This document shows, in pieces, positions 4,871 to 35,737 of a stretch of DNA of 44,151 bases. The stretch comes from a virus. The number at the start of each line of letters is the position of its first letter. Position 1 is the stretch's first letter. Position numbers and translations under genes: made by a program. Location: the UHGV virus genome UHGV-0181040; one strand, written 5' to 3'. Below the pieces are notes generated by a model that saw only the letters and a program-made list of their open reading frames with translations, ran no database searches and was not told where the DNA came from.

Positions 4871-4934
4871 TCGCCTTTATTTAAAGGAACGCACTGTGGT
4901 TAAATAGGACAAATCCTAAGCACGAGGAATAAGC

Positions 4935-6292: not shown

Positions 6293-6295
6293 GAA

Positions 6296-6321
6296 AAGGC
6301 CCCGAAAGGGGCCTTAGTTTT
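6296..6321. terminator. bidirectional rho-independent terminator AAGGCCCC-GAAA-GGGGCCTT
   Basis: 8-bp GC stem flanked by an A-tract upstream and a T-tract downstream. Lies between the convergent cargo cassette and the major tail gene. Confidence 0.65.
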
Positions 6322-9267: not shown

Positions 9268-9269
9268 TT

Positions 9270-9782
9270 TCAGCCCCGGTACACGTTAAACGAGAAACCA
9301 TTGTTAAGACCGCCGCACAGTAATGGGCGTAAAGCGTCGTCAGCAGCGGTAATCGCGGTTGTAGCCCCACTGCTGCCGTTGTTGAAATATGTCACTGCCA
9401 CCGCACCCTCAACTCGCTCAGTCTGCACGGAACGACCGTCTGAGTTGGCCCGTACCTCAATACCCGCACCATATGTAGCGGCGGCGATTACTTGCGCAAG
9501 AATCACCTGCTTCGGGATGGCATTGTTAGCTACTGGGAAGCCATTCAACGTTACCCCAGTGCGCGGGTACGCCAGAGACTGTTCGGCGGACACACGGCGA
9601 CCGCACATCTGCGGTTCTGCAAGCCCGACATAAGTAGCGCCGTTGCGCAGAGCTACTTCCGCAGTGGTATCGTCTTCTGGCAGCTCAAGGCCATAATTAG
9701 CCGCTAACGCGCGGGCGTCCGCTAGTGAGATGTACGAATCAGCATTCGGGACGATTGCCCCCGTTTCCACGATTAGCGGCAT
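9270..9782 (-). CDS. gp6-like head-tail connector (adaptor) protein
   Basis: The N-terminus MPLIVETGAIVPNADSYISLADARALAANYGL resembles the gp6-like connector family signature. Confidence 0.45.
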   Translation of the reverse strand: MPLIVETGAIVPNADSYISLADARALAANYGLELPEDDTTAEVALRNGATYVGLAEPQMCGRRVSAEQSLAYPRTGVTLNGFPVANNAIPKQVILAQVIAAATYGAGIEVRANSDGRSVQTERVEGAVAVTYFNNGSSGATTAITAADDALRPLLCGGLNNGFSFNVYRG

Positions 9783-11456: not shown

Positions 11457-12158
11457 TTATTTCCTCAGGGCTTTAAGTTGCCGTTCAAATTCGGCAGGGT
11501 TCGATTTATACAGAGCTAAACGCTCCGCTTCGCTCATGTCTTTAAACGCTGGTGCGGCCCCGCCGCCTTTGCTACCGGAAGCCCCGCCGCCGGAAGCTGC
11601 ATTTGCTTTAATCAAATGCGAAAACGCTTTGTGTTCGCGCAGGTATTTGCGGAACTGTTCCTGGTCAGTTGTGATTACGTTTCCGTCTGCGCCAACAAAC
11701 TTAGTAACCACATCATCACCTTCGAACTCAGTCTTAACGAACGGTGTAAGAATGTCTACTGCTTCCGGGGTAATAAAGTCTCCCGCGAAAGAGCCTAACA
11801 CCGCTTTACGTTCGCTGCCGAGGATGCGCTCTGCCATTCTGGAGATGCGACCATCTTTCTCGGCTAGCACCGGGTCATACTGGCTACGAATCGTCTTTTC
11901 GAACTCGTCCATCTTACCAGCGGCTTTTAACGCCTCCTGGTGCGCGCGCTGCCGTTCTTCTTCGGCCTCTTTTGCTTTACGGGCGGCTTCTTTCTTCTCC
12001 GCCAACAACGCTTCCTGATTAGCCTTAAGCCCGGCCACTTCTTTCTCAATCAGTGCCTGAACTTCTTCGGCTGTGAACATTTTCGGCGCATCACCGCCAC
12101 CGGCCTTATCTTCTGCACCAGCTTTTTCCTGGAACGGATAACGTAAAAAACGATTCAT
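11457..12158 (-). CDS. scaffolding protein
   Basis: Charged coiled-coil EEVQALIEKEVAGLKANQEALLAEKKEAARKAKEAEEERQRAHQEALKAAGK. Immediately upstream of the major capsid gene. Probable ATG at 12158 (MNRFLRY). Confidence 0.6.
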   Translation of the reverse strand: MNRFLRYPFQEKAGAEDKAGGGDAPKMFTAEEVQALIEKEVAGLKANQEALLAEKKEAARKAKEAEEERQRAHQEALKAAGKMDEFEKTIRSQYDPVLAEKDGRISRMAERILGSERKAVLGSFAGDFITPEAVDILTPFVKTEFEGDDVVTKFVGADGNVITTDQEQFRKYLREHKAFSHLIKANAASGGGASGSKGGGAAPAFKDMSEAERLALYKSNPAEFERQLKALRK

Positions 12159-12240
12159 AGTCAGTATGTCCCCTGGACGTTGGAACCCGGGCCACCCGGA
12201 TTTACATGTCAAGAATAAATTATTCCAACATGCAAGGCAA

Positions 12241-12504
12241 CTATTCCAGAATATTCCTCACGTAGTCCTGCAACATGAACACTTTCAGTCTCAGTTGCCG
12301 TACACATTCGGCGTTCTGAACGTCAATAGCTAAATCCTCGTCGGCATCACTACTTGGCGGTGCCAGCTTGCACGGCGGCTGCATCATCGTCGTATCCGGG
12401 GATGGAATTTGCGTTTGCGACGGCGCGGGACTTGAGCTGCACGCGCTCAGGGTCAAAAGTGCACACGCTGCGGCCAGGCGTTTTAATGTACTTAACGACT
12501 TCAC
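12241..12504 (-). CDS. Rz1: Rz1-like o-spanin (outer-membrane lipoprotein), overlapping Rz and extending past its stop
   Basis: GTG start with RBS GAGGT. Lipobox LLTLSAC. Pro-rich mature region SSSPAPSQTQIPSPDTTMMQPPCKLAPP. Confidence 0.6.
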   Translation of the reverse strand: MKSLSTLKRLAAACALLTLSACSSSPAPSQTQIPSPDTTMMQPPCKLAPPSSDADEDLAIDVQNAECVRQLRLKVFMLQDYVRNILE

Positions 12505-12736
12505 GGGTAATTACCTCTGATTTCGTCTTGCCTTCGTTGTCAGCGGCTGCGGCCTTTGATTCATCCTGCTGCTGCCGTTGTGTTTTCTTCGCTAACTCAG
12601 CCTGTGCTTTCTGCTGTTGCTGCGAAACGAGATTCGCCCGGCCTTCGTTCCAGCCGGTACGGTACTGATAAACGCCGTGTGTGTAAGCCAGGATGATGAA
12701 ACATGTTCCTGCTACGACAGTTGCTTTAAGATTCAT
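12350..12736 (-). CDS. Rz: Rz-like i-spanin (N-terminal transmembrane helix followed by a periplasmic coiled coil)
   Basis: MNLKATVVAGTCFIILAYTHGVY transmembrane helix, then a Gln/Ala/Lys coiled coil. RBS AAGGAG. Contains an embedded overlapping lipoprotein ORF. Confidence 0.6.
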   Translation of the reverse strand: MNLKATVVAGTCFIILAYTHGVYQYRTGWNEGRANLVSQQQQKAQAELAKKTQRQQQDESKAAAADNEGKTKSEVITREVVKYIKTPGRSVCTFDPERVQLKSRAVANANSIPGYDDDAAAVQAGTAK

Positions 12737-13055
12737 GTTTCTCCTTTCTCGATAAGTAAAGCCCCGCCTTAAAGCGGGGCGCTAGGCCTTATCATTTAAA
12801 TATAGAAACGGCGTAATCTCAGTAAACCAGTTACTTTTTACACAAGCAATAGACTATGGCCCTTCCGAACGCGTCAGCGTAACTACACTCAGGACTAACG
12901 TCCCGCTCCGTTACCTGCCCGCGCCGCGGTCGCTTGTTCATACTTCACAAGCTCAGGAGGAGCTTAGCATATTTTTAGTGAAAAGTCAACTATTCGAATA
13001 GTTTATTCCGACATTTACAATTAAGTGGAATAACTGGAATACGTAAATAAATAGT

Positions 13056-13086
13056 TTGCAGGCACCAATATAATAGGGTACTATTC
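13056..13086 (+). promoter_or_regulatory. promoter TTGCAG-17-TACTAT with operator TAATAG-GGTA-CTATTC (regulon copy 2)
   Basis: A 36-nt block nearly identical to copy 3 at 15227..15257. 24 nt upstream of the HNH ATG. Confidence 0.6.
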
Positions 13087-13109: not shown

Positions 13110-13649
13110 ATGCTCACTAAACGTTCAGAAGCAATAGCCGCTGGCGATGATTATTACTTCACGGGAAAACCGTGTAAACGTGGGCATGTCGCGAAAAGGC
13201 ATGTCCGCACCGGGTGCTGTGAGTGCACTAAAGAGATACAAAAATCGTACCGAGAACGCAACGTTGTTTCTTGGGCGGCTAAAAACGCAAAATGGAGGCG
13301 AGAAAATAAAGACCGAATAGCTGAAATTGACGCAGAGTACCGTAAGAAAAACAAAACCGCCAGGAAAGCCCAAAGGCTGAAGTATAAAACGGCAAAAAGA
13401 GCCAGGAGTATAAACATCAGGAATGATGAATTTGACCTATTAGTATTCGAAGAAGCGCAGGAGCTATGTCAACTGCGAGCGGGCGAAACAGGTTTCTTAT
13501 GGCATATCGACCACATGCTGCCGCTGCGTGCTAAAACTGTCTCTGGGCTGCATGTCGCAGAAAACATACAAGTTATCCCTGCGGTTCTTAATCTCTTAAA
13601 AGGTAATAAATTAATTTTCACCGAGAGAGGCTCTTGGTTGGCTTCCTGA
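13110..13649 (+). CDS. HNH homing-type endonuclease
   Basis: Cys-rich N-terminus CKRGHVAKRHVRTGCCECTK and HNH core HIDHMLPLRAKTVSGLHVAENIQVIPAVLNLLKGNK. Free-standing on the opposite strand inside the head gene block. Confidence 0.75.
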   Translation: MLTKRSEAIAAGDDYYFTGKPCKRGHVAKRHVRTGCCECTKEIQKSYRERNVVSWAAKNAKWRRENKDRIAEIDAEYRKKNKTARKAQRLKYKTAKRARSINIRNDEFDLLVFEEAQELCQLRAGETGFLWHIDHMLPLRAKTVSGLHVAENIQVIPAVLNLLKGNKLIFTERGSWLAS

Positions 13650-13678: not shown

Positions 13679-14139
13679 CATTCAGGCTTCGTAACCTTCG
13701 CCGCTTTGCTTACGGCCTCTACACCATCGGCATCAGTAACTTTAACGAAGTATTCACCAACCGCGTTAACCGTCAGGGACAAGGCCTCTTCTGGAGCGTT
13801 TACCACTTCCTTACCGTCCTTATACCAGGTCAGGGTATATGGCGCTTTGCCCGCCTTAACTTCGACAGTGATGGCCGCGTTGCCGTCTGCCAGTTCAGCG
13901 TCTTTCGGTTGCACAGAGAAATACACATCGCCTGCGTCCGCCAGATACGGAATTTCGTAAAGCATACCCGCCGCAGGCAACGCAATACCGGTCTTGTCTG
14001 CAAACGGCATATCGTCTACTGGTGTACCCAGTACACTTTCGTCTTCAATAAACACCACGTTCTCACCAGAACCGGACACGCGAGCGTACTGGACAACACG
14101 GCGCGATGGCACATCAGTTACTTTAAAAAAGCCCATCAT
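13678..14139 (-). CDS. Ig-like (I-set) domain protein, possible decoration or accessory protein
   Basis: C-terminal motif YTLTWYKDGKEVVNAPEEALSLTVNAVGEYFVKVTDADG. ATGA coupling to the upstream head morphogenesis gene. Confidence 0.45.
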   Translation of the reverse strand: MMGFFKVTDVPSRRVVQYARVSGSGENVVFIEDESVLGTPVDDMPFADKTGIALPAAGMLYEIPYLADAGDVYFSVQPKDAELADGNAAITVEVKAGKAPYTLTWYKDGKEVVNAPEEALSLTVNAVGEYFVKVTDADGVEAVSKAAKVTKPE

Positions 14140-15239: not shown

Positions 15240-15257
15240 TATAATAGGGTACTATTC
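15227..15257 (+). promoter_or_regulatory. promoter TTGCAG-17-TACTAT with operator TAATAG-GGTA-CTATTC (regulon copy 3)
   Basis: Near-identical to copy 2. 30 nt upstream of the ATG at 15287, with RBS AGAGGAGGAA. Confidence 0.6.
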
Positions 15258-15286: not shown

Positions 15287-15616
15287 ATGATTAATGCTAA
15301 AGAAGAGTTGCTCGCCCATCTGGATGGTAAAGATGTAGTTAAATGCGCCTGGTTTGCGGACTATGATGCGGATGACGCGGATTACGATTTCGTTGAGGGG
15401 AGTAAATGGCTCCTGCGGGAGAATTACTCCCGCGGAGAATGGGAAAGCCTAATGGCTGAACTTGATTTTGAATATCACAACGGTCACGGCATTCAAAACT
15501 TCTTCGGGGTAATTTGGTACGAAGATGGTACATGGTCTTCTCGCGGAGAATACGATGGTTCTGAATGGTGGGAATATAATGTCGTGCCGGATATGCCGGA
15601 AGAACTTAAGCGCTAA
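15287..15616 (+). CDS. small highly acidic Trp/Tyr-rich protein; candidate DNA-mimic-type anti-restriction or anti-defence protein (cargo gene)
   Basis: 109 aa, rich in D/E and W (ADYDADDADYDFVEGSKWLL..., EWWEYNVVPDMPEE). Has its own operator-controlled promoter and terminator. On the opposite strand between the portal and head morphogenesis genes. Confidence 0.45.
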   Translation: MINAKEELLAHLDGKDVVKCAWFADYDADDADYDFVEGSKWLLRENYSRGEWESLMAELDFEYHNGHGIQNFFGVIWYEDGTWSSRGEYDGSEWWEYNVVPDMPEELKR

Positions 15617-21510: not shown

Positions 21511-21539
21511 AATATAATTGGTGTAAGAGTAATAGTCAA
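21511..21539 (-). promoter_or_regulatory. sigma70-like promoter TTGACT-17-TATATT (minus strand)
   Basis: Same hexamers as the promoter at 32062..32090. The spacer carries CACCAAT and a partial operator half-site TAATAG. Confidence 0.45.
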
Positions 21540-21565
21540 CTAGTCATTGCAGAAAATAGATAAAA

Positions 21566-24206: not shown

Positions 24207-24237
24207 GAATAGTAGCCTATTCTATCTTAGCGTGCAA
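24207..24237 (-). promoter_or_regulatory. promoter TTGCAC-17-TACTAT (minus strand) with a perfect palindromic operator GAATAG-N4-CTATTC (regulon copy 4)
   Basis: On the plus strand: GAATAG 24207..24212 and CTATTC 24217..24222. The minus-strand -35 is at 24237..24232. Confidence 0.55.
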
Positions 24238-24395
24238 GTAAATTTTATTGGTGTTTGTATTGTTGCATCTCCTGCAATAGTCGCTTGGATTGTTGCGTTT
24301 CGTGAAAGTGTCGCTTTTTGACGACACTAATCTAAAGTTGTACGCTGCTGTGTAGCAGCGTAAGTTACAAAGCCAAATAGTAACCTATTGACCTG

Positions 24396-24593
24396 TTACA
24401 CCAGCGATGGCGGCTCCGGTAACGGCATCCAGTGAGTTACGTCATCACTACTGATATTTGAGTTACGCGGCGCCCAACAATCCCAGAAACCGTCGCAGTC
24501 CCGCCACATCACCTCAACGTTACCCCCATCCGAAACCAGCACATATTCAAAATCATCAGGCATCTGCTCACTGCACTTAATCCACTCACTCAT
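24396..24593 (-). CDS. DUF551-like phage protein
   Basis: C-terminal THWMPLPEPP and overall DUF551 pattern (WIKCSEQMPDDFEYVLVSDGG). Confidence 0.5.
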   Translation of the reverse strand: MSEWIKCSEQMPDDFEYVLVSDGGNVEVMWRDCDGFWDCWAPRNSNISSDDVTHWMPLPEPPSLV

Positions 24594-25227: not shown

Positions 25228-25485
25228 TTAGTCCTTAACCCTTACCCAGAATTCACCAGGCCCCCGACACCACAAAAGATTAGGCGTCTCACAAACCAAC
25301 CCGTAATCACTGCGAGCACGAATCGGATAAACGTCTTTATACAAGAGAATCCCTGTTCGCAGAAAATCAGGGTCGCGCGTTGCGGTGCGCCACATGTTGT
25401 AAAATTGCTCCACCCCGGCACCACGAGCCATCACCCGCACCTTATGCAGTTTTTCGGCAACAGTTTCCAGTTCAGTGACAGTCAT
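25228..25485 (-). CDS. hypothetical early protein
   Basis: ATG at 25485 after the RBS GAGGGAGG; the track ORF starts on an upstream TTG. Confidence 0.3.
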   Translation of the reverse strand: MTVTELETVAEKLHKVRVMARGAGVEQFYNMWRTATRDPDFLRTGILLYKDVYPIRARSDYGLVCETPNLLWCRGPGEFWVRVKD

Positions 25486-25500
25486 TAACGGCAACCTCCC

Positions 25501-25716
25501 TCAGAGTCGTCTGCACGGGCAACCTCCCTCAGAGTCGTCGGCACTAGCATCATTATTCGATGCCGTTCGTATGGATCGCAAACTGTGAAGCATTCTCTCG
25601 GCGGAAGCTGTGATGATTGTTATCCCGTCTAAAATAACAACCTCGTACCTGTTTACCTGGAAATAAACTTTCTCCAGTTTATGGTGCTTCAGTTCTTCAA
25701 ATAATTCTTCCATCAC
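25501..25716 (-). CDS. hypothetical early protein
   Basis: 71-aa ORF whose 3' end spans a 29-bp tandem duplication. Confidence 0.3.
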   Translation of the reverse strand: MMEELFEELKHHKLEKVYFQVNRYEVVILDGITIITASAERMLHSLRSIRTASNNDASADDSEGGCPCRRL

Positions 25717-25892
25717 TTCGCCCCTTTGAATTTAAAATTGTTGCCGATGAGTTTTAAATTGGAAGCATGGCGCACAAGCACCTTACCGGAAAAAACATCC
25801 TGCACACGATAGAACCCGTTAAAAATCTCCATGCTGCGTATAGAATAAATAGAACCGTTGTTGTCTCGTGCGATTTGACCACGTTTAAACAT
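25713..25892 (-). CDS. first gene of the leftward early operon (59 aa)
   Basis: ATG at 25892 after the RBS GAGGAGTGAGGG, about 28 nt downstream of the predicted transcription start. Confidence 0.3.
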   Translation of the reverse strand: MFKRGQIARDNNGSIYSIRSMEIFNGFYRVQDVFSGKVLVRHASNLKLIGNNFKFKGAK

Positions 25893-25924: not shown

Positions 25925-25955
25925 GAATAGTATCCTATTATGTTGGGGTGTGCAA
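25925..25955 (-). promoter_or_regulatory. leftward early promoter TTGCAC-17-TACTAT with operator GAATAG-TATC-CTATTA (regulon copy 5)
   Basis: The reverse complement matches copy 1 (4487..4517) at 34 of 37 positions. Confidence 0.6.
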
Positions 25956-26344
25956 GAGAATAGTTACGTTGCCGTTGTGATTCTTTCGTTTAATGGGGTA
26001 GCGAAACGAAACGAACGTGGTGCCGAAGGCACCAAGAGTGAGTGAGTGAGCTTGCGAATCAATAACTTATATCATGTGGTAAAATTTAAATAGACGGGGG
26101 CTTTCTTGCGACTTGCTGTTACTTTGAGGAAACTTAGATACTGACGTTGTCGAAGTGACTCTCAGCGCCCGTCCTTTGGGGCCGGGCTTTGGTCACCAGA
26201 GACTTAAGAATAATGTTTCTAAGTAATTCAGAACTAGTGTCCTTCGATACGTTGATTTTACAGCTACATTTTATTTTGTCAATAGGTTGTGTTCGGTTAT
26301 TGTAGGTGTTATAGTTGTTTCACTTGATAAAGAGGGCTTGTAAA

Positions 26345-26524
26345 ATGACACAGAAAGAAGTAGCAGACTTAATCGGAGTTTCTCCTATGACGCTTAATCG
26401 CTGGCTTCGGTCTGGTAAGTTCCCGGAGTGTTGCCGGGTTATTAACGGCTACCGGCAGCCAGGTACTTTTGACCGCGCTACTGTGGAGGCGTGGATTAAG
26501 GAGAACGTGAAAGATGCTAACTAA
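26345..26524 (+). CDS. AlpA/excisionase-like HTH regulator
   Basis: MTQKEVADLIGVSPMTLNRWLRSGKFPE is a typical AlpA-family HTH. Confidence 0.55.
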   Translation: MTQKEVADLIGVSPMTLNRWLRSGKFPECCRVINGYRQPGTFDRATVEAWIKENVKDAN

Positions 26525-26789
26525 ATTCCAGAAACATATATTAATGTGCGCACGCAGACTGACCGAGGCGAACGGCGCTTTTACGGTAGACGGGCTTCGG
26601 AGATACCGGTTAGATAATTACGGTGTAAATCCGATTAAACATGCTTTGGATGTTCTCGAGCAACACGGAGAGGTTCTTAATAAAGGAAAGTTTTATCGGG
26701 CAAAAAGAGCAACTCCGATTACAGAGAAAGCGAGAAGTATTGGAAAAGTGTTGGTCCCTGAGGGTAATATCTCCCGCGACCTGGAATAA
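26514..26789 (+). CDS. hypothetical protein
   Basis: 91-aa ORF between the HTH gene and the primase-helicase gene. Confidence 0.35.
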   Translation: MLTKFQKHILMCARRLTEANGAFTVDGLRRYRLDNYGVNPIKHALDVLEQHGEVLNKGKFYRAKRATPITEKARSIGKVLVPEGNISRDLE

Positions 26790-26847: not shown

Positions 26848-29109
26848 ATGTCCGATGTAATTTTATCCTACTCGTGGTCTCGTCGCAACGCGCGGGCAGA
26901 GAAAAAGGATATAAACGTCAGAACCACACACACGGCAACGCTGGACGACCTGAAAGAGCTAATTCAGCCGCTCGATGCCGTTCGCGGCTGGATTAACCCT
27001 AAGACCGCGCCTGGCTATATCACCGCCGCGTGCGATTCTACTCACAGCACCGTGAGAGACCCGGAAACAGGAGACTTTAAGCAAGCGCGTAAAGGCTTCT
27101 TCTATCGCTGTGACGCGTCTGTAAGCAAATCGTCGCTGGCGTACCTGGACTTCGACAGTGCAACGCCGGAAGAGTATCAGGAAGCGGTGCGCATGGTTAA
27201 GCGCAGCCGCCAGGCGATGTGCCTCTACACCACGGCATCACATACCGACGAGTCACCGCGCTTTCGTGTCGTCATGCCGCTGGGCCGCCCGGTTGAAGGC
27301 GGCGACATCATCCGTGTTCGTCATGGCTTACTGGAGCACTTCTTCAAAGGCATGGGCGCCGACCGCAGCGGATTCACTCTGTCACAGCCGATGTACCTGC
27401 CACCGGTTGGCTCTACCGTTATCTGGTCGCGCCGCAACGACCTGATTGACCCGGACGAGTTACTGGAAGGCGTCCCGGATTACGAGGTGAGCAGCGCATC
27501 GGATTACCAGATACCGGAAGAACTGCGCACCGCGTTTACCGATGCGTTCGAAGCCCTGGCGTTCGAGTATGGTGGCGTCATGACGCCGCGCGGCCTGAAA
27601 ATGCCAGCTACACCGGAACACGCAGAAAACTATAGCGACCCGACCCCGCGCCCGGACGACTTCCTGCTGTGCTTCCCGCGCGAAGGGTACGAAGCGCCTA
27701 ACGTAACCATGATTCACGACACAGACATCACGGCAACCGAAGGCATGTCGCCGAAGGAGGTGTGGAGGTATGTGTGCGATGCGACCGGGCTGCCGTTCAG
27801 TGAAGTCGCGGAGGCTATTGGCTGGGGTGCACGTGAATCTGTCTCATGCAGCCTCGACGACCTGGAAGACGACGAGGATGACGAGTTACCGCAACCGGTA
27901 AAGGCTGATTTCGTCGTTGAAGGGTACATGCCGTCGGATTGCATATGGGATATCGTCGGGGAATCTGGCACGTACAAATCATTCTATACGCTGGGGATGA
28001 TGTACCTTAGCGCCGCCGGATACCGGTTCGCGGGGGCGGATACTCAGCGTTGTCACCATTTCTATATCGACGGTGAGGGTGGCGCAGCTACCCGCACGCG
28101 TATCGATGCACTCGCAGCTAAATATGGCGCGGAAGGTAAAGATTATGTACATGTTATCGATATGGGCGAAGTCGGCAAACTGAAAAGCCTGATTAAGTTA
28201 ATGCGCGAAATTGCTGGCGACGGGCCTATTGGCATGGTCGCGTTCGACACCCTTAACCAGACGCTGGCTCTGACGATTGATAAGTTCGACGAGAACAGTT
28301 CATCGACGGTGATTGGCATGGGTAAAGTTATCGCCATCCTGAAAGAAGTACGCGATGCGACTAAAGCCGCGGTAGGCGTTGTCCATCATACGCCGAAAGG
28401 CGGAAAGAAAGCCCGAGGTAGCGGCGCTCTGTATGCGGGTGTCGACGTGGAGCTGACAATCGAACGCGCTACCGACCGCCAGATAAACGTATACCACTCG
28501 AAATTTAAGCACGGGCCTCAACAGAAGACAGTTGGCATGGTTCTGGAGTCTGTACAGTTCCGTGAAGCGCCGCCGCCGAAAGAGTACCGTGCTGTTGAGT
28601 TCCTGGGCAGCACCGAGGAATACGGCACAATCGTAAACCTGGACTTGCCGGAACCACACAAAGCGCTTGTGCTGATGCCGTGGGGCTTCGAGCCGTTCAA
28701 GACTGACGAGGAGAAAGAGCGGGAAGAAGGGCTGACAAAGGAAGGTAAAACGGCTGTTAAAGAAAAGGTAGGTCAGTTTGAGAAACTGGATTCCAAAGAG
28801 GCTACGGTTATTTACGCATTAGGTAAATTGCAGGAGCAGGGTGACGACAAGCGAGGGTTTTCTATGTCAACTATCGTCAAAGCCGCGAAAGAAGATAGTT
28901 ATGGCGTACCGATTAACGCAAATAATGATCTTCGAAAGAAACTGGAAGAGATGCACGAGGCCGGGGTTATCGTCTCGGGTCTGGATAACAACAACAGGCC
29001 AATACCTAAGCAATATCGGCTGCCGTGGGGTATAAACGACAACAAGATTCCGAAGACAATATATGAACCGAATGAGATGCTGGTGGTGACAGAGGAGGAT
29101 TTGGAATAG
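26848..29109 (+). CDS. primase-helicase (N-terminal primase/polymerase-like domain plus RecA-like AAA_25/RepA-type helicase)
   Basis: Walker A GESGTYKS, Walker B/arginine-finger region, 753 aa. Acidic linker SLDDLEDDEDDE. Confidence 0.7.
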   Translation: MSDVILSYSWSRRNARAEKKDINVRTTHTATLDDLKELIQPLDAVRGWINPKTAPGYITAACDSTHSTVRDPETGDFKQARKGFFYRCDASVSKSSLAYLDFDSATPEEYQEAVRMVKRSRQAMCLYTTASHTDESPRFRVVMPLGRPVEGGDIIRVRHGLLEHFFKGMGADRSGFTLSQPMYLPPVGSTVIWSRRNDLIDPDELLEGVPDYEVSSASDYQIPEELRTAFTDAFEALAFEYGGVMTPRGLKMPATPEHAENYSDPTPRPDDFLLCFPREGYEAPNVTMIHDTDITATEGMSPKEVWRYVCDATGLPFSEVAEAIGWGARESVSCSLDDLEDDEDDELPQPVKADFVVEGYMPSDCIWDIVGESGTYKSFYTLGMMYLSAAGYRFAGADTQRCHHFYIDGEGGAATRTRIDALAAKYGAEGKDYVHVIDMGEVGKLKSLIKLMREIAGDGPIGMVAFDTLNQTLALTIDKFDENSSSTVIGMGKVIAILKEVRDATKAAVGVVHHTPKGGKKARGSGALYAGVDVELTIERATDRQINVYHSKFKHGPQQKTVGMVLESVQFREAPPPKEYRAVEFLGSTEEYGTIVNLDLPEPHKALVLMPWGFEPFKTDEEKEREEGLTKEGKTAVKEKVGQFEKLDSKEATVIYALGKLQEQGDDKRGFSMSTIVKAAKEDSYGVPINANNDLRKKLEEMHEAGVIVSGLDNNNRPIPKQYRLPWGINDNKIPKTIYEPNEMLVVTEEDLE

Positions 29110-29111
29110 GC

Positions 29112-29138
29112 AAAAAGAAAGGGGCGTTAAGCCCCTTC
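29112..29138. terminator. bidirectional terminator AAAGGGGC-GTTA-AGCCCCTT between convergent genes
   Basis: GC stem flanked by an A-tract and TTCAC. Confidence 0.55.
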
Positions 29139-29342
29139 ACCGAACGCTAGCCACTTGGCGTCTACTTCCAGCACCTCCGCCAGTTTAAACAGCGTCGCCG
29201 GGCGGACATCCTGAGTTACACCGAGTGCCAGTTGGTTAATCGCTCCCTGGGAAACTCCGGCCAGCACAGCCAGACGGCGCTGGGAGATGCCGAGTTCTTT
29301 ACGGCGTTGCTCTACACGGATGCCTAGTTCAGATGGTTGCAT
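29127..29342 (-). CDS. XRE-family (Cro/CI-like) HTH regulator
   Basis: The 71-aa sequence contains LGISQRRLAVLAGVSQGAINQL. Transcribed divergently from the second rightward operon. RBS AAGGAG. Confidence 0.7.
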   Translation of the reverse strand: MQPSELGIRVEQRRKELGISQRRLAVLAGVSQGAINQLALGVTQDVRPATLFKLAEVLEVDAKWLAFGEGA

Positions 29343-29371
29343 GTTAATTACTCCTTAGTCAGTTGATATGT

Positions 29372-29387
29372 GAATAGTACCATATTA
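29372..29387 (-). promoter_or_regulatory. operator GAATAG-TACC-ATATTA overlapping the presumed promoter of the XRE gene (regulon copy 6)
   Basis: About 30 nt upstream of the XRE ATG. A TACTAT -10-like hexamer lies on the minus strand within the site. Confidence 0.5.
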
Positions 29388-29406
29388 ATTATTTTAAGAA
29401 AGCCCA

Positions 29407-29435
29407 TTGACACGTGAATAGTCCGCTATTATAGT
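29407..29435 (+). promoter_or_regulatory. strong rightward promoter TTGACA-17-TATAGT with operator GAATAG-TCCG-CTATTA in the spacer/-10 (regulon copy 7)
   Basis: Consensus -35 and exact 17-bp spacer. 32 nt upstream of the ATG at 29467. Confidence 0.6.
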
Positions 29436-29466
29436 TAGCCCATACCAAACGAGAGGAGAGAAACAA

Positions 29467-29976
29467 ATGCTAGACCAATTCTTAAAATTACTGGAACGTT
29501 TCGTAGTTGCCCATGAACTGATGGCTGCAAATAGTGTGAAACGGCCGGTGCAGCCGACTGAGTGTGTAGGTGAAATGCTTGTAGATGTATCGGTTACGGG
29601 AGAGGTGCTTGAAGTCGACCCAGGTACGGGCGTCGGGAAAGAAATCCCGGTCGAAGGTGAAGACATCGTTGACGCTAAACCCGCGGAAGAAGAGAAGCCG
29701 AAACGCAAGCCGCGTAAACCTAAAGTAGAGGAACCGACGCCAGAACCGGAAGAAGAGAAAGAAGAGGTAGATTACCAGTCTCTTCGTGACCAGATTCAGG
29801 CTATCGACGATGCGATTAACGAAGGTCCTAGCGATGCCGCGTGTGATGATTCCGATGAACTGTTGGAAGAGTTCACCGGTAAGAAGATGAAGATTGCCGC
29901 GATTAAAGACGAAGACCTGGCCGAATATCTGGAACGCCTGACGGCAATCAAGAACAAGTATTTCGAAGAAGAATAA
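29467..29976 (+). CDS. promoter-proximal very acidic protein with a central KPKRKPRKPK patch (candidate DNA mimic or replication accessory)
   Basis: 169 aa with long D/E runs (PEPEEEKEEVDYQSL...DDSDELLEEF). Confidence 0.4.
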   Translation: MLDQFLKLLERFVVAHELMAANSVKRPVQPTECVGEMLVDVSVTGEVLEVDPGTGVGKEIPVEGEDIVDAKPAEEEKPKRKPRKPKVEEPTPEPEEEKEEVDYQSLRDQIQAIDDAINEGPSDAACDDSDELLEEFTGKKMKIAAIKDEDLAEYLERLTAIKNKYFEEE

Positions 29977-29981
29977 CTATC

Positions 29982-30005
29982 CCGCGGCCTTCGGGCCGCT
30001 TTAAC
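29982..30005 (+). terminator. hairpin GCGGCC-TTCG-GGCCGC plus TTTAAC (weak terminator or attenuator)
   Basis: Seen by eye after the acidic gene. Confidence 0.35.
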
Positions 30006-30019
30006 AGAGGGTCGGAAAT

Positions 30020-30250
30020 ATGTGTAAAAACGATGGTGGACAGGCTTTTCCTGTTGCAGGGTCAGACCACAATTACTCTTGGGAAGGCATGACGTTACGT
30101 GATTATTTCGCGGCTAAAGCCCTTCAAGGGTGGCTTGCTAGTTACCCAGCGGACGCAGTACACCCTGTTGCCGCGGGGAACACAGCGCAAGTAGCGCAAA
30201 TGGTGTACATCATGGCTGATGCAATGCTGGAAGCGAGGGGCGCCGAATGA
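30020..30250 (+). CDS. hypothetical protein
   Basis: 76-aa ORF with RBS GAGGGTCGGAAAT. Confidence 0.35.
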   Translation: MCKNDGGQAFPVAGSDHNYSWEGMTLRDYFAAKALQGWLASYPADAVHPVAAGNTAQVAQMVYIMADAMLEARGAE

Positions 30251-30519
30251 TTTACCAACTCTACCGCGCCGTAGACAGGCGGGATAATACGGAGGCGTTG
30301 TGGCTGTTGCGTGCGCCGTCCGGTGCGCACCAGATGGAAGAGATGGCGTACTTAGGCAAAGTACCGCGGCCTAAAGACATAGGCCGTCACGTTTCGCAGA
30401 TTAAGCGCACGACTTTCGCCAAACCTGACTTTTATGTCTTCGAGTCGATGTATAGCTGGGCTATGCATTGCCACCACCAGACACGACATTTAATTGACCA
30501 GTGGGAGAGCAGGGTATGA
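30247..30519 (+). CDS. hypothetical protein
   Basis: 90 aa, ATGA-coupled. Confidence 0.35.
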   Translation: MIYQLYRAVDRRDNTEALWLLRAPSGAHQMEEMAYLGKVPRPKDIGRHVSQIKRTTFAKPDFYVFESMYSWAMHCHHQTRHLIDQWESRV

Positions 30520-31817
30520 TTTTAAAAGAACGCGGCGGCAATAACGATGTGCACGCCTTACTGTCACCGTCGGGGGCTAAAAAGTGGCTAAGCTGCGCGG
30601 CATCGTTGGCCTGTGAAAAAGATATTCCTAACACGTCGGGTAAAGCCGCGGTATTAGGTACAGCCATGCACACCATAGCAGAGATGCACCTTAACCAGTA
30701 CATCAAAGACACTGCGTTGCCGTTAGAGCGTGAGGTCGGTGCTTACGTGCTGGATGAAGGTAAAGGCCAGATTAAGGCGCTAATCAGCCCGATGAAAGGC
30801 GCGGTACTGATTACGGCGGACATGATTGAGCAGGTGCGCAAGTACACCGACTACTGCAAACCGATTATCGATGTAGCGACTTATGCCAAGCTCGAGATGC
30901 GTGTCAATCTTACTGAGGTATTGCATCCTGGATACATCCATAGCCCCGGTGGGAGGCAAGAAGAAATACAAACCTTCGGAACAGCCGACTTAGTGGCGGT
31001 TATAGAAGGCTTTACAGGTGAAAGTGACTCAGCGATGCTCATTATGGGCGACCTGAAAACAGGACGGCATCGTGTCGAAGCGAAAGAAAACAAGCAGCTT
31101 ATGCTTTACGCTCTCGGTGTTTATCGCCGACTCAAGAGACGCTATAACATCACCGTTGTTCGTCTGGTCATATTCCAGCCGTATGCAGGCGGCGCGTCGG
31201 AGTGGGACATCTCAGTTGAAGGACTGGAACTGTTCGCTAAGTTCGCACAGAAACGGGCACTGTTAGCCCTTGATGCATATTTCCGCGGTAAGAAGAACCT
31301 GAAAGCGTCGGACTTCAAACCGTCGGTAGATGGATGTCAGTGGTGCCGGTTCTCTGAACAGTGTGCCGCGCGTACAAAGACGGTTAATTCTGTACTGGCT
31401 GAAGAACTGGAAGACGACTTTGCGCTGGAACTGACGCCGGAGCAACTCGTCGCTGAGTATGAGAAGTTGCCGTTGTTGCGTCAGCACATCGACAAGGTTG
31501 AGAAAGCGATGGCCGCCGCGTTGCATTCCGGTAAGAAAGTTCCTGGGTACAAGTTGGTTGAAGGTAAGATGGGCAACCGTGCGTGGAAAGATGCGAAGGA
31601 GGTAATAGACGCCGCAGAATTTTATGAAATAGACCGGAAAATGCTGTTTAAGGCGTCTCTTGTGTCTCCGAAAGAGGCAGAAGCCGCGTTTAAAAATACC
31701 GATGCGTGGCCTATTCTCGAAAAACTAATTACACGCAAGCCCGGTGCGCCATGTGTCACAACGGCAGACGACAAACGTCCTGAGTGGAATCAGGTAACAG
31801 AGGAGGATTTAGAATGA
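30516..31817 (+). CDS. Cas4/RecB-like PD-(D/E)XK exonuclease (DUF2800-type)
   Basis: Motifs GTADLVAV and GDLKTG, C-terminal cysteine cluster CQWCRFSEQC. Upstream of a DUF2815-like ssDNA-binding gene and the DNA polymerase. Confidence 0.65.
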   Translation: MILKERGGNNDVHALLSPSGAKKWLSCAASLACEKDIPNTSGKAAVLGTAMHTIAEMHLNQYIKDTALPLEREVGAYVLDEGKGQIKALISPMKGAVLITADMIEQVRKYTDYCKPIIDVATYAKLEMRVNLTEVLHPGYIHSPGGRQEEIQTFGTADLVAVIEGFTGESDSAMLIMGDLKTGRHRVEAKENKQLMLYALGVYRRLKRRYNITVVRLVIFQPYAGGASEWDISVEGLELFAKFAQKRALLALDAYFRGKKNLKASDFKPSVDGCQWCRFSEQCAARTKTVNSVLAEELEDDFALELTPEQLVAEYEKLPLLRQHIDKVEKAMAAALHSGKKVPGYKLVEGKMGNRAWKDAKEVIDAAEFYEIDRKMLFKASLVSPKEAEAAFKNTDAWPILEKLITRKPGAPCVTTADDKRPEWNQVTEEDLE

Positions 31818-32065
31818 TTCGTAAAATGTTCAGAGTAATTGGCGGTTTTTTGGCGTGTATTGTTTTCTGGGTTCTTATGCTGCCGCTAACGTTACCAACA
31901 TTTATCTTAATGTGTATTACGGTATGTATAGCACAAACTCGCGACATCGAAGCCATCCTGAGCGATAAATCGTGGAAGACACAGGCGCTTCGATTCATAA
32001 ACAACATGAAATGGCCAAGCAAGTATATTGAGATAGTTGAGAAAATAACTGGCTGGAAGGGTTGA
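31814..32065 (+). CDS. small membrane protein (2 transmembrane segments)
   Basis: The ATG sits inside the upstream C-terminal codons, which double as the RBS GAGGAGGA. Hydrophobic run FLACIVFWVLMLPLTLPTFILMCITV. Confidence 0.4.
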   Translation: MIRKMFRVIGGFLACIVFWVLMLPLTLPTFILMCITVCIAQTRDIEAILSDKSWKTQALRFINNMKWPSKYIEIVEKITGWKG

Positions 32066-32090
32066 CTCCTGAATAGTTAGCTATTATATT
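32062..32090 (+). promoter_or_regulatory. internal promoter TTGACT-17-TATATT with operator GAATAG-TTAG-CTATTA in the spacer (regulon copy 8)
   Basis: The -35 overlaps the stop codon of the upstream gene. 56 nt upstream of the ssDNA-binding protein ATG. Confidence 0.55.
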
Positions 32091-32145
32091 TCTAATCACT
32101 GGCCGGGCAGATCCCGGAGTAAACTGAAAACTGAGGAATCGAGAA

Positions 32146-32772
32146 ATGGGACTGAAATTAAATCTGCGTAAAGTAAACACTGCATGGGTTAACGTATTTG
32201 AACGCGAAAAAGACCGTGAAAACGATGATGGTTCAATTACTAAAGGCCAGTACAGCGCGACTATTATCCTGCCGCCTGACCATGCTCAAATCGACGCGCT
32301 CTACGACACCGTTTACGCTGTAGTTGAAGAAGCGTTGGGCGCAGCCGCTGCTGAGAAGTGGATGAAGTCAAACTACGGCGAAGGTAAGCTCATGGATAAA
32401 TGCGCGATTAAAGACATTGCCGAGCGCGACAATCCGTTTGAAGACTTCCCGGAAGGGTTCTACTTCAAAGCGAAGGCGCAGAAACAACCGCTGATTGTAA
32501 CCTCTAAAAAAGGTGAGACTCAGGTAGAGCAGGACTTCAACGTAGACGGCGAACAGATTGAAGGTGAACAGGTTTACAGCGGTTGCATCGCTAACGTAAG
32601 CGTTGAAATCTGGTTCAGCCAGAAATACAAAGTCCTCGGCGTTAACCTGCTGGCGATTAAATACGTTGGCGAAGGTAAAGCGTTTGGCGGTTCTAAAGTC
32701 GCTGCTAGCGTCAATGATCTGGAAGACGATGAAGACGATGGAGCACCGCGCCGCGAACGTCGCCGCCGTTAA
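32146..32772 (+). CDS. DUF2815-like phage ssDNA-binding protein with an acidic C-terminal tail
   Basis: The N-terminus MGLKLNLRKVNTAWVNVFE matches the DUF2815 pattern. C-terminal NDLEDDEDDGAPRRERRRR. Confidence 0.55.
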   Translation: MGLKLNLRKVNTAWVNVFEREKDRENDDGSITKGQYSATIILPPDHAQIDALYDTVYAVVEEALGAAAAEKWMKSNYGEGKLMDKCAIKDIAERDNPFEDFPEGFYFKAKAQKQPLIVTSKKGETQVEQDFNVDGEQIEGEQVYSGCIANVSVEIWFSQKYKVLGVNLLAIKYVGEGKAFGGSKVAASVNDLEDDEDDGAPRRERRRR

Positions 32773-32791
32773 TATCTGAATCAATTTAACT

Positions 32792-32816
32792 AAGGCCCTT
32801 CATTGGGCCTTTTTTA
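32792..32816 (+). terminator. terminator AAGGCCC-TTCATT-GGGCCTT plus TTTTT
   Basis: Lies downstream of the ssDNA-binding gene. Could be a partial terminator or attenuator, since the polymerase gene follows. Confidence 0.55.
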
Positions 32817-32832
32817 CTAAGGGTCGAAAATA

Positions 32833-35082
32833 ATGAGTTACCTGTTCTTAGACTTTGAAACATTCTCCGAAGCCGATTTAAAGAAAGTCGGTTCCTACGC
32901 TTACGCTGAACATCCAACTACCGAAGTGCTAATCTGTACCTATGCTTTTGATGACGGGCCTGTAGAAGTATGGGATTGCACCGACGGCAGTGACATGCCG
33001 GGCGATTTGCATCGCGCGTTACGCCGCCTGGTTAAGCCCAACAGCCGCATCAAGATGGTGTGGCATAACGGTGGACTTTTCGATAGGCTCATTATGAAGC
33101 ACTGCTGGGGCTTTGATATTCCGGTCAGCAACACCATTGATACGATGATTTGGGCGTTCCGTCACGCGCTGCCGGGTTCACTTGACGCATTGTGTGAAGT
33201 GCTGGGCGTATCGGCGGACAATGCGAAAGATAAACGCGGCAAGGCGCTGATTAAGCGTTTCTCTAAGCCGACACCGAAGAACTACAAAATCCGCCGCTAT
33301 ACCGCCGAAACCCACCCCGACGAATGGGCGCTATTCATCAAGTACGCTGTGAGCGACATCACTGCGATGCGTGAAGTCTTCCATAAGCTGCCGCGTTGGG
33401 GTAACTCCGAGTTTGAAGACCGCGTACTGGAACTTGACCAGTTAATCAACGACCGCGGGTTTAAGGTTGACGTCGCACTGGCGGAGGCCGCAATTGAAGC
33501 TGTAGAGAAACACAAAGCGCAGTTACAGGAAGAAGCCCAACGTAAATACAGCGGCTCGCTTACTGGTAAAGACTTTCTGCCGATTCTGCGTGAACTGGCT
33601 CCTGCGCACCGAATCCACAACGCGCAGAAGTCAACGCTTAATGACCTGCTTGCGGATGATGATTTACCTGACGATGCCCGCACGATTATCGAAATGCGCC
33701 TCGGGGCGGCGTCCACCGCATCAACGAAATATAACCCGCTGCTGCTGGGCCGCTCTTCGGACGACAGACGCCGCGGTTGCATCCAGTATGGCGGGGCCAA
33801 GCGTACGCTACGGTTTGCGGGTAAAGGCTTCCAGCCGCAGAACCTGGCTCGCGGGTACTATCACGACGACCCGAAGAATAAAAAGAAGAAAGTACGTTAT
33901 GACTGGATGTCAGAGAAGGACTGGTGGAGAGTAACACACCCATTGTCCTACGGAATCGACCTGTTGTTTAAAGGCCGTGCGCATCGCCGATTTGACGTAG
34001 CCAAACTAACGGCATCGACGGTGCGTAGCTGCATCATACCTGAAGCAGGGCATAAGTTTGTCGTTGCCGATTACTCTAACGTTGAAGGCCGCGGGTTGGC
34101 ATGGCTTGCGGGGGAAGAAACCGCCCTCGATACGTTCCGTGCCGGGCTGGATATTTACTGTGTAACCGCGGGTAAGATGTTCGGAATGGACCCCGATTAC
34201 ATTCTCGAAAGCCGTAGTGACCTGCGCCAGATTGGCAAAGCATGTGAATTGGGCCTCGGCTATGCTGGCGGCGTTGGCGCTTTCGTTCAGTTTGCTAAGA
34301 ACCTCGGCTTAAACCTGGTTGATATGGCTAAAACAATGGACGGTACTTTCCCGGACCACATATGGGCCGCTACTGCACGGGGCTATGAGTGGGCGCGTAT
34401 TCAGGAGGCAAAGCGGCCGCCACGCCCCGGTGAAAAGGATGACCGACCATCATATATTCTTGATAAGAAAGTTTGGCGCACCTGCGACGCTATCAAGCGT
34501 ATGTGGAGAGAGTCACACCCTGAAACAGTGGCTTTCTGGCGTGATATTGAAGACGCGGCTATGGCGGCTATCAGAAATCCGGGAAAAGAGTTCACCGCGG
34601 GGCCGCGGGGCGTTAAGTTTTCGCGTAACGTGGAAACAGATAACAACGGCAACAAAGTCGCGGGTTGGTGGTTGCGCATGACGCTGCCGTCGGGGCGCGT
34701 TATGTCATACCCGGGCGTCGGGTTAAGCGTGTCGAAAGAGACAGACGAAGATGGAAAGGTGTCTACTAACGTGCGCATCAAGTACCAGGGAGAAAACCAG
34801 TTAACCCGTCAGTGGGGCTTCCAGTACACCTACTCCGGTAAACTGGTGGAAAACTGCACTCAGGCGCTGTGCCGTGATTTGCTGGCTAATGCGCTGCTGA
34901 ACGTCGAAGCAAACGGCTATCCGATTGTGCTTCATGTACACGATGAAATTATCTGCGAAACTCCAGATTTACCGGAATACAATGTTGCAGAACTTGAGCG
35001 GTTGATGTGTGAATTACCGGAATGGGCTGAGGGGTTCCCTCTTGTAGCGGAAGGTGCGGAGATGAAGCGCTATGCTAAGTAA
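32833..35082 (+). CDS. family A DNA polymerase with 3'-5' exonuclease domain (no 5'-3' exonuclease domain)
   Basis: Exo I motif LFLDFETFS. Motif A DYSNVEGRGLAWLAGE. Motif B RQIGKACELGLGYAGG. Motif C HVHDEI. Confidence 0.85.
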   Translation: MSYLFLDFETFSEADLKKVGSYAYAEHPTTEVLICTYAFDDGPVEVWDCTDGSDMPGDLHRALRRLVKPNSRIKMVWHNGGLFDRLIMKHCWGFDIPVSNTIDTMIWAFRHALPGSLDALCEVLGVSADNAKDKRGKALIKRFSKPTPKNYKIRRYTAETHPDEWALFIKYAVSDITAMREVFHKLPRWGNSEFEDRVLELDQLINDRGFKVDVALAEAAIEAVEKHKAQLQEEAQRKYSGSLTGKDFLPILRELAPAHRIHNAQKSTLNDLLADDDLPDDARTIIEMRLGAASTASTKYNPLLLGRSSDDRRRGCIQYGGAKRTLRFAGKGFQPQNLARGYYHDDPKNKKKKVRYDWMSEKDWWRVTHPLSYGIDLLFKGRAHRRFDVAKLTASTVRSCIIPEAGHKFVVADYSNVEGRGLAWLAGEETALDTFRAGLDIYCVTAGKMFGMDPDYILESRSDLRQIGKACELGLGYAGGVGAFVQFAKNLGLNLVDMAKTMDGTFPDHIWAATARGYEWARIQEAKRPPRPGEKDDRPSYILDKKVWRTCDAIKRMWRESHPETVAFWRDIEDAAMAAIRNPGKEFTAGPRGVKFSRNVETDNNGNKVAGWWLRMTLPSGRVMSYPGVGLSVSKETDEDGKVSTNVRIKYQGENQLTRQWGFQYTYSGKLVENCTQALCRDLLANALLNVEANGYPIVLHVHDEIICETPDLPEYNVAELERLMCELPEWAEGFPLVAEGAEMKRYAK

Positions 35083-35438: not shown

Positions 35439-35737
35439 CCCCGGAAGGCAAAATACAGAAATACGCAAAAGAGCGATTCGAGGCCCTGGGGGGCCTCGTT
35501 CGTAAACTTTCCTACGAAAATAGAGTTGGCGCTCCTGACCTGCTGGTAATTCTCCCCGGCGGCGTTATCTGGTTCGTCGAGGTTAAGAAAGACGAAAACA
35601 CGAAGCCGGACCCCCACCAGTTACGAGAGCACGAGCGGATGCGCAAACGCGGTGCGAATGTTTTTGTCGTTGGTTCGTTTAAACAGGTTGACGGCCTAAT
35701 AGCGAACTATTATAGTAGTCATACACCAACAATATAA
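35435..35737 (+). CDS. VRR-NUC domain nuclease
   Basis: PD-(D/E)XK core GAPDLLVILPGGVIWFVEVKK; about 100 aa from ATG 35435. The track ORF 35255..35737 is an in-frame run-on. Confidence 0.7.
   Translation: MTPEGKIQKYAKERFEALGGLVRKLSYENRVGAPDLLVILPGGVIWFVEVKKDENTKPDPHQLREHERMRKRGANVFVVGSFKQVDGLIANYYSSHTPTI

Follow-up and report, generated by a model that had tools for sequence, protein, structure and literature searches.

The virus genome UHGV-0181040, a stretch of 44,151 nucleotides that we call the window, contains a 124-bp divergent control region at positions 29343–29466, and this region raises the question of whether it is a lysogeny switch, the remnant of one, or a regulatory device of another kind. 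On its left lies the leftward gene of a 71-residue XRE-family protein (29127–29342, minus strand), a proposed operator-binding repressor, and on its right begins the rightward replication module (29467 onward, plus strand). A first-pass annotation likened the arrangement to the P_RM/P_R region of temperate phages and considered three roles for it: a Cro-like temporal switch, a lysogeny remnant, and lysogeny-like control such as pseudolysogeny. The reading that we favor, and consider probable, is a solitary, autoregulated global repressor of the 434 Cro type in a virulent phage, rather than the leftover of a lysogeny switch. The ~7 kb surrounding the region share ~90% nucleotide identity with Escherichia phages K1G, K1H, K1ind, and many more, and give weaker nucleotide matches to several hundred Salmonella Jersey-like phages; the identity to K1G, K1H, and K1ind marks the window phage as a Kagunavirus of the subfamily Guernseyvirinae, small siphoviruses that published descriptions treat as virulent.

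All the elements that the first-pass annotation listed here, namely the XRE open reading frame (ORF), the rightward promoter P_R, the repeats, and a TACTAT hexamer, are present where it had placed them. P_R (29407–29435, plus strand) consists of TTGACA (29407–29412) and TATAGT (29430–29435) separated by 17 nt, matches the sigma70 consensus at 11 of 12 positions, and serves the replication operon, with a predicted transcription start site near 29442. It had been called the strongest sigma70 match, and across the window no other 11/12 match has a 17-nt spacer, two further ones having spacers of 16 nt. A 25-nt direct repeat (29363–29387 and 29407–29431, 80% identical, spacing 44) has as its conserved core a 14-bp inverted repeat, AATAG-N4-CTATT, whose two copies form the reported pair of operators with centers 44 bp apart. 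O_R (AATAGTCCGCTATT, 29417–29430) is a perfect palindrome that fills the P_R spacer from −25 to −12, its final T being the first base of the −10 element. O_L (AATAGTACCATATT, 29373–29386; AATATGGTACTATT on the opposite strand) has one mismatch to AATAG-N4-CTATT and covers the −10 of the proposed XRE promoter.

This promoter is a candidate extended −10 element, TGgTACTAT (29374–29382, minus strand; TACTAT at 29379–29374, TG at 29382–29381), with a predicted start near 29367 and a ribosome-binding site read from the sequence as AAGGAG (29351–29356, minus strand), 8 nt before the ATG. The sequence seventeen bases before the TACTAT offers no usable −35, and extended −10 elements are able to function without one. 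The TG at −15/−14 that makes the −10 extended is generated by the single O_L mismatch, a G to T change. That O_L departs from the consensus precisely where the promoter is made would explain why it is invariant, center included, in 33 Kagunavirus sequences. The idea of autoregulation, put forward because an operator overlaps the −10 upstream of the XRE gene, is thus borne out at the level of layout: the operators overlap core elements of the predicted promoters in the regulator's own control region. A promoter scan also returned an alternative or additional XRE promoter, TTCACG-16-TAAAAT (29391–29418, minus strand, 9/12); transcription from it would begin near 29384, with O_R around −39.5 and O_L around +4.5. 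Its TAAAAT is invariant in Kagunaviruses, and its −35 falls in a linker of variable length. In Jerseyvirus, the XRE promoter is a conventional TTGCAC-17-TACTAT, with the same TACTAT and a good −35.

O_L and O_R are not a private pair but members of a genome-wide set of ~11 sites. Exact copies of AATAG-N4-CTATT number nine in the window against 0.01 expected, and copies with at most one mismatch number 12 against 0.88; none of 100 shuffles reached either count. In three Kagunavirus genomes, the window, K1G, and Schulenburg, no other 5+5 palindrome is as frequent as this motif, the runners-up being GC-rich terminator stems. The palindrome is the real unit: the 9-mer GTGAATAGT taken alone is not unusual (13 matches with at most one mismatch, 8.6 expected) and was rejected as the unit. 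A position weight matrix (PWM) scan separates ~11 good sites, scoring 15.7–24.6, from the next at 12.6 and 11.6. The 12.6 site is an exact but doubtful palindrome at 24376–24389, just after ORF 24396–24593, with no −35 and a less conserved left arm.

Each good site overlaps a core promoter element, lying over the −10, in the spacer beside the −10, or over the −35, and together the sites stand before nearly every inferred transcription unit. The exception is the operon of an HTH_17 protein and the helicase-primase, whose promoter region (26255–26303) contains no operator by PWM scan. Three geometries can be told apart. In the class I geometry, the operator lies over the −10 of a TTGCAs-17-TACTAT promoter, as at 4503, 13072, and 15243 on the plus strand and 24208 and 25926 on the minus strand, and O_L is of the same class. 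In class II (29417, 32072, and 35698), it occupies the spacer beside the −10 of a promoter with a near-consensus −35. In class III (12981 and 21531), it covers the −35 of minus-strand TTGACT promoters. In each of the three, a bound protein would be predicted to stand in the way of RNA polymerase.

The two class II sites outside the divergent region belong to the replication module: 32072–32085 lies in the spacer of TTGACT-17-TATATT, the promoter of the genes for a single-stranded DNA-binding (SSB)-like protein and DNA polymerase, and 35698–35711 in that of TTGACG-17-TATAGT, which serves the VRR-NUC, methylase, and helicase genes. Among the leftward class I sites, 25926–25939 covers the −10 of TTGCAC-17-TACTAT for the genes at 25919 and leftward, and 24208–24221 that of a second TTGCAC(24237–24232)-17-TACTAT upstream of the lysis cluster. 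The class III sites each have one mismatch. Site 21531–21544 overlaps the −35 of a minus-strand TTGACT-17-TATATT that precedes small genes and then terminase; it is highly conserved across Kagunaviruses and occurs in Jerseyvirus as well. Site 12981–12994 overlaps the −35 of a minus-strand TTGACT-17-TAAGCT upstream of the spanin/capsid operon.

Three class I operators lie in bidirectional cassettes. That at 4503–4516 belongs to a plus-strand TTGCAC-17-TACTAT for the variable ORF 4544–4870 and, on the minus strand, to a GTTACA-17-TATATT facing the tail chaperone/tape-measure operon. That at 13072–13085 precedes ORF 13110–13649 (plus strand, endonuclease VII-like), and its opposite strand faces the spanin, scaffold, and capsid genes. 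That at 15243–15256 belongs to TTGCAG-17-TACTAT for the variable ORF 15287–15616 (plus strand), and its opposite strand faces the head-morphogenesis genes. The three plus-strand ORFs are insertions that run opposite to the structural genes and have no nucleotide homologue in the other Kagunaviruses fetched. The cassettes directly ahead of these variable ORFs are themselves conserved over ~36 nt, TTGCAs-N6-AYAT-AATAGGRTACTATTCA, and have the look of a promoter module that accessory ('moron') genes can reuse.

We retrieved 51 loci encoding XRE relatives from IMG/VR and aligned the orthologous sites of ~30 Kagunaviruses. The arms TGAATAG and CTATTAT show a conservation of at least 90% at O_R, 32072, and 35698; at O_R itself they are invariant around a variable central 4 bp. 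Both P_R hexamers are conserved, with a spacer of 17 or 18 nt, and the distance between O_L and O_R is 44 or 45 bp. The bases between the −35 and the operator arm, 5–6 nt at P_R, are the region's most variable, length included. The left arm at 29417, 32072, and 35698 spans −25 to −21, a stretch whose sequence is not read by sigma70. Sites 32072 and 35698 are flanked by genes of one orientation, with no opposite-strand −10 needed, and both arms are still kept. Such arms, retained outside the positions read by sigma70 while center and linker drift, speak for the binding of a symmetric protein, beyond promoter function alone.

The same alignments bear on the possibility that the palindrome has no dedicated ligand and is a by-product of a copied cassette with back-to-back −10 elements (TACTAT and TATAnT) on the two strands. 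The class I cassettes lend this some color, as they share their ~36 nt beyond the palindrome, precede variable 'moron' genes, and use one palindrome arm as part of the −10. The explanation nevertheless does not account for the class II sites, with their invariant arms in a stretch unread by sigma70 and their drifting center, or for 12981 and 21531, where the palindrome lies over the −35 instead. Nor would promoter function need the symmetric double changes seen in the palindromes of other lineages, described below. We give this explanation only a slim chance.

The protein encoded beside O_L has the features expected of a Cro. It matches Pfam HTH_3 (PF01381, Cro/C1-type) with an E-value of 2.3e-12 and 47.2 bits, above a cutoff of 23, and its closest solved-structure relative by sequence is phage 434 Cro, also of 71 residues (phmmer E-value 5.4e-7 over residues 6–68; 38–41% identity). 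A single-sequence AlphaFold (AF2) model contains five helices with a predicted local distance difference test (pLDDT) score of 82.7, and its top Foldseek match is again 434 Cro (2cro; TM-score 0.77/0.82, 39% identity), followed by HipB, SinR, restriction-modification (R-M) controller proteins, and P22 c2. Gln28 of the 434 repressor touches the first operator base, and the aligned glutamine is invariant among all XRE orthologues aligned. Neither Pfam nor the AF2 model reveals a C-terminal oligomerization, cleavage, or peptidase domain in the 71 residues, which argues that XRE is by sequence and model a Cro-type rather than a CI-type protein. Orthologues occur in 563 phage records, the whole subfamily has the protein, and database labels of the gene already include 'transcriptional repressor' and 'Cro'. 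Klebsiella phage klb_E, considered as an extra lineage, was set aside: it has only the XRE protein in common and is not a relative.

Which protein reads the palindrome can be approached by comparing lineages. Genomes whose XRE recognition helices read VSQGAINQL, VSQSLITHL, FSQGRVSHI, and VSQGMLNHL contain the AATAG/CTATT palindrome at 12, 8, 10, and 4 sites, respectively. Pantoea phage AH01, with the helix MTQGGIGHI, has instead AATAC-N4-GTATT (10 copies against 1.03 expected; none in the window), and Cornellvirus, with VTQSAISHL, has TATTA-N6-TAATA (9 against 1.06; 2 against 1.18 in the window), a pattern found also in four further contigs. From class to class, both arms of the palindrome change symmetrically, at position ±3 or ±6, as would be expected for a dimer. 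In AH01, the region between XRE and P_R contains two AATAC-class copies, one abutting the P_R −10 and one over the −10 of the XRE promoter, and has the same architecture with a different specificity. Because the palindrome class tracks the XRE allele, and given the known binding mode of this family, we infer that XRE is the palindrome's ligand.

The main competitor for this role is the HTH_17 ('AlpA-like') protein of 69 residues encoded at 26315–26524 (plus strand, identified by Pfam), which the first-pass annotation had named, at 26345, as the possible actual ligand. According to this explanation, the palindrome is read by HTH_17, another phage protein, or a host factor, and XRE regulates something else. 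HTH_17 heads the sole operator-free operon, which makes it a natural candidate for an early regulator, and its conservation is 66–71% between Kagunavirus and Jerseyvirus, two groups with the same palindrome. Jerseyvirus keeps the gene, at 70% identity, and has eight AATAG sites against 1.3 expected, and Cornellvirus SP031, without the gene, has one against 1.0. This co-occurrence profile at first favored HTH_17, with Cornellvirus lacking both, but the finding that phiEap-2, AH01, and Tsm2 keep promoter palindromes reversed it.

The 443 records of HTH_17 all come from Kagunavirus and Jerseyvirus. No homologue occurs in phiEap-2, AH01, Tsm2, SP031, GRNsp27, TS33, or VLCpiS11a, seven genomes of six lineages, and promoter palindromes persist in all of these except VLCpiS11a. 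phiEap-2 has 10 AATAG-type sites against 0.91 expected, those at the P_R and SSB promoters included, and AH01 likewise has 10 sites of its class. The class shifts while the palindrome remains paired with the XRE gene. To our knowledge, no enterobacterial regulator has an AATAG-N4-CTATT consensus, a point against the host-factor variant.

A further argument for HTH_17 comes from AlpA and the Q-type antiterminators, which are known to bind elements between the −35 and −10 of sigma70 promoters (PMC9371919). That element is short, asymmetric, read by a monomer, and used for loading onto RNA polymerase, and Pseudomonas aeruginosa AlpA is a larger protein, a monomer that reads a 6-bp asymmetric element (PMC9371919). 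The palindrome here is symmetric, spans 14–16 bp, changes symmetrically, and is found over −10 and −35 elements as well. The HTH_17 protein consists of that domain only, without the combination of an RNA-exit-channel segment and a helix-turn-helix that defines the AlpA/Q type, and relatives keep the element without the gene. RNA-seq of a Kagunavirus placed a helix-turn-helix gene among four early genes (PMC12645636), a weak lead only. Overall, a ligand other than XRE is very unlikely, and HTH_17 is disfavored as that ligand. The HTH_17 allele of the window is rare: nine records are 95–99% identical to it, and most Kagunaviruses are 66–72% identical.

Taken together, XRE and its operators suggest the following course of infection. 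Early on, host RNA polymerase would use all the sigma70 promoters, and XRE would be made from its own extended −10 promoter. The protein would bind as a dimer to the 14-bp palindromes AATAG-N4-CTATT. As it accumulated, dimers would fill the perfect operators; occupancy of O_R would block RNA polymerase at P_R and turn down the replication operon, and the remaining strong promoters would be occluded likewise. In all, about ten further sigma70 promoters have the operator over their −10, spacer, or −35. At higher levels, the imperfect and presumably weaker O_L would be occupied as well, limiting XRE synthesis by negative autoregulation. The net effect would be a genome-wide brake or timer on transcription during lytic growth, and not the maintenance of lysogeny. 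The identity of the ligand, its dimeric state, the sign of regulation, and the positions of the start sites are all predictions from sequence. The proposal of a Cro-like temporal switch accords with this picture, as the protein is Cro-sized and 434 Cro is nearest to it by sequence and fold.

Several observations weigh against this model. The allele-palindrome tracking comes from few lineages, whose independence of one another is incomplete, and the Jerseyvirus helix SQSLITH looks nearer to the Cornellvirus TQSAISH than to the Kagunavirus SQGAINQ, yet Jerseyvirus has the Kagunavirus operator. The Jerseyvirus operators beside XRE are imperfect, with one mismatch in O_R and two in O_L, and VLCpiS11a has an XRE gene and no detected palindrome. 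Operators also stand on promoters before the late, structural operons, which is awkward for a simple early shutoff, and some sites may be activated or regulated differently. RNA-seq of Kagunavirus K1B4, at coarse time points and low resolution, lends no clear support either way (PMC12645636).

A rival proposal is that XRE binds the palindromes as a dual regulator, repressing its own promoter and the strong promoters with a consensus −35 and activating, or being required at, promoters with a poor −35, such as those facing the structural operons at 4503, 13072, and 15243. Operators before late operons are hard to square with repression alone, and the opposite-strand promoters facing these operons have weak −35 elements (GTTACA, AAGTTA, and CGTTTA). 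XRE bound at O_R may in addition stimulate the upstream XRE promoter, in the manner of CI at P_RM; with TTCACG-16-TAAAAT as the XRE promoter, the O_R position near −39.5 is that of a class II activator. The operator centers at −18.5 or −12.5 from the predicted starts, however, would suit MerR-type activators only, and these need spacers of 19–20 nt where the promoters here have 17–18 nt. Precise activating contacts are also hard to reconcile with the 1-bp variation in the O_R–O_L distance and the −35 linker among close relatives, and the late operons have better promoters as well, whose −35 lies under the operator (12981 and 21531). On balance, we regard dual regulation as unlikely.

Does the region nevertheless descend from, or act as, a lysogeny switch? 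The comparison with P_RM/P_R holds for the divergent promoters with one operator each and fails elsewhere: there is no CI partner, the operators are two instead of three, and the operator is not local. No third site rises above background in 29343–29466 by PWM scan. A lambdoid immunity region would be recognized by a divergent CI-type gene, three tandem operators for cooperative and bistable regulation, and integration, partition, or prophage occurrence, none of which was found. The annotated genomes of K1G, Schulenburg, and horsemountain contain no integrase, excisionase-integrase pair, partition genes, or CI-type repressor; the annotated relatives have no second XRE or CI gene; and the ORFs unique to the window include no integrase, partition, or CI-type genes. 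The absence of integrase and partition genes noted earlier thus holds for the window's variable ORFs and the annotated relatives alike. The first gene of the P_R operon (29467–29976, plus strand; 169 residues) is a homologue of the MB78 '13.88 kDa late protein' without a Pfam match; it falls in PHROG 3127, a family labeled as function unknown, and is a replication-module protein and not a CI-type repressor.

The region is unmatched in 5,426 complete Escherichia coli genomes, and a GTDB scan with one genome per bacterial species revealed no enterobacterial prophage copy. The GTDB scan matched only a 19-kb contig, NZ_JACVEL010000022.1, from Taishania pollutisoli (Bacteroidota), which encodes a Jerseyvirus-type XRE 51% identical to that of the window and is probably a phage contamination of the assembly. 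In PLSDB, the record CP088689.1 (pC16EC0033-2), a 44,086-bp circular, non-mobilizable 'plasmid' from an E. coli blood isolate in South Korea, is a Kagunavirus genome (locus at 1177–9537), 90% identical to window positions 27862–33000; it could be a carrier state or a culture contamination. A lysogeny remnant is unlikely, as XRE and the operators are conserved and the palindrome class tracks the XRE allele in all ten Guernseyvirinae genomes examined; in VLCpiS11a no palindrome was detected.

The record CP088689.1 also speaks for a lysogeny-like silencing function, in which one repressor would hold an unintegrated episome quiet, as in a carrier state or pseudolysogeny, or confer superinfection immunity against related phages. 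Operators on nearly all transcription units would suit such a function, and the split of the operators into classes is reminiscent of the immunity groups that temperate phages form. The Cro-sized protein, on the other hand, has no domain for oligomerization or cleavage, the genomes lack a CI partner, integrase, and partition genes, the 5,426 E. coli genomes yielded no copy, and the species-level scan yielded no enterobacterial prophage. The group is described as virulent, pseudolysogeny draws on this single plasmid-like record, and the record may be a culture contamination. We consider silencing highly improbable.

The preferred reading, a solitary Cro-type repressor, can be compared with known systems. 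434 Cro binds 14-bp inverted repeats. Like it, XRE is a 71-residue, single-domain HTH_3 protein, with 434 Cro as its best sequence and fold match; its operators are 14-bp inverted repeats whose central bases are not conserved, and they lie in a divergent promoter region over core elements, the regulator's own control region included. Unlike the 434 region, there is no opposing CI gene, two operators replace three, the half-site is AATAG and not ACAA, about nine further operators lie elsewhere, and the phage is described as obligately lytic. The XRE gene is also transcribed divergently from P_R, whereas cro in 434 is the first P_R gene.

R-M controller (C) proteins such as C.AhdI and C.BclI are likewise small XRE-fold dimers and rank among the top structural matches of XRE. 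C proteins are autoregulated timing devices that act through paired palindromic boxes in their own promoter. They control their own operon only, activating and then repressing from adjacent boxes, while the XRE sites lie 44–45 bp apart, serve two promoters, and belong to a genome-wide set. In its proposed role, XRE resembles the Cro proteins of lambda and P22, small lytic-phase repressors that lower strong early sigma70 promoters, their own expression included. Its fold differs from that of lambda Cro, and lambdoid late genes escape through Q antitermination, whereas the late-operon promoters here have an operator.

We found no description of this operator or regulon in the searchable literature, no account of transcription timing in Guernseyvirinae phages, and, in the literature searched, nothing usable on the promoters of MB78 or Jersey-like phages. 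The circuit would differ from that of 434 Cro by the absence of CI, by a genome-wide regulon in a virulent phage, and by a specificity that has diversified within one subfamily. A bolder proposal is that lytic Guernseyvirinae run nearly their whole program through one Cro-sized repressor with at least three 'immunity-like' classes, able to silence an entire incoming or resident genome and so to give superinfection immunity against their own kind or an integrase-free carrier state; this we judge distinctly unlikely. Were the silencing reading true, the Kagunavirus 'plasmid' CP088689.1 would exemplify such a carrier state.

Guernseyvirinae, including Jerseyvirus, Kagunavirus, and their relatives, are among the phages most often isolated and put forward for the therapy and biocontrol of Salmonella and E. 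coli, and their small 'repressor/Cro' gene is inconsistently annotated and can be taken as a warning sign of lysogeny. If the repressor model is true, one 71-residue protein and a 14-bp operator would explain the control of nearly all promoters, and virulent phages would show that a Cro-type switch can stand alone as a global regulator with no CI beside it. XRE supplied in trans would then be predicted to confer class-specific resistance, and the three specificity classes would offer an engineering handle, for example inducible or orthogonal promoter-repressor pairs.

Gene order around the region varies within the subfamily. The replication module that begins at 29467 encodes, in the window, a PD-(D/E)XK exonuclease, the SSB-like protein, DNA polymerase I, VRR-NUC, a methylase, and an SNF2 helicase. 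On the other side, the HTH_17 gene is followed by a small ORF and then by the gene for the 753-residue helicase-primase (26848–29109, plus strand), which neighbors the XRE gene and is convergent with it. In phiEap-2, SP031, GRNsp27, VLCpiS11a, TS33, Tsm2, and AH01, which represent all the other Guernseyvirinae lineages examined, XRE heads the helicase-primase operon and still lies opposite the replication operon. The helicase-primase operon of Kagunavirus and Jerseyvirus is inverted and headed by HTH_17, leaving XRE as a lone convergent gene.

Between the ends of the helicase-primase (29109) and XRE (29127) genes, the terminator scan located a GC-rich hairpin (29118–29138) with a T-run on the minus strand only, which identifies it as a predicted terminator of the XRE transcript. 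Since the plus-strand side has no T-run, the helicase-primase transcript may cross XRE in antisense and continue into P_R. Further upstream, a strong leftward promoter, TTGACA-16-TAAAAT (26282–26255, 11/12), has its −35 (TTGTCAA, 26276–26282) in common with the rightward HTH_17 promoter, and neither promoter of 26255–26303 has an AATAG palindrome. A minus-strand terminator (26034–26018) follows ~220 nt downstream of the leftward promoter with no ORF of at least 40 residues between them, so that a short non-coding or micro-ORF transcript could be produced. A structured small RNA in this interval was considered and rejected, as it has no Rfam match, contains no tRNA, and folds no better than shuffles.

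Two other repeat families were noted in relatives. A second palindrome, GAATAA-N-TTATTC, occurs in three to four copies near the spanin/scaffold genes of Cornellvirus, GRNsp27, and phiEap-2 (at 25328–25717 and 26513–26663 in FSL SP-031, and at 11501–12683 in phiEap-2); the window lacks it, and another regulator may bind there. Just past the helicase-primase gene in SP031 (13750–14039), tandem copies of GTGAATAGTTATGCAGAAAAAGTGAATAGTTATTC, which contain the Kagunavirus-type half-site GTGAATAGT, are followed by G-rich repeats (GGGGAGA), and the two together are a possible origin of replication.

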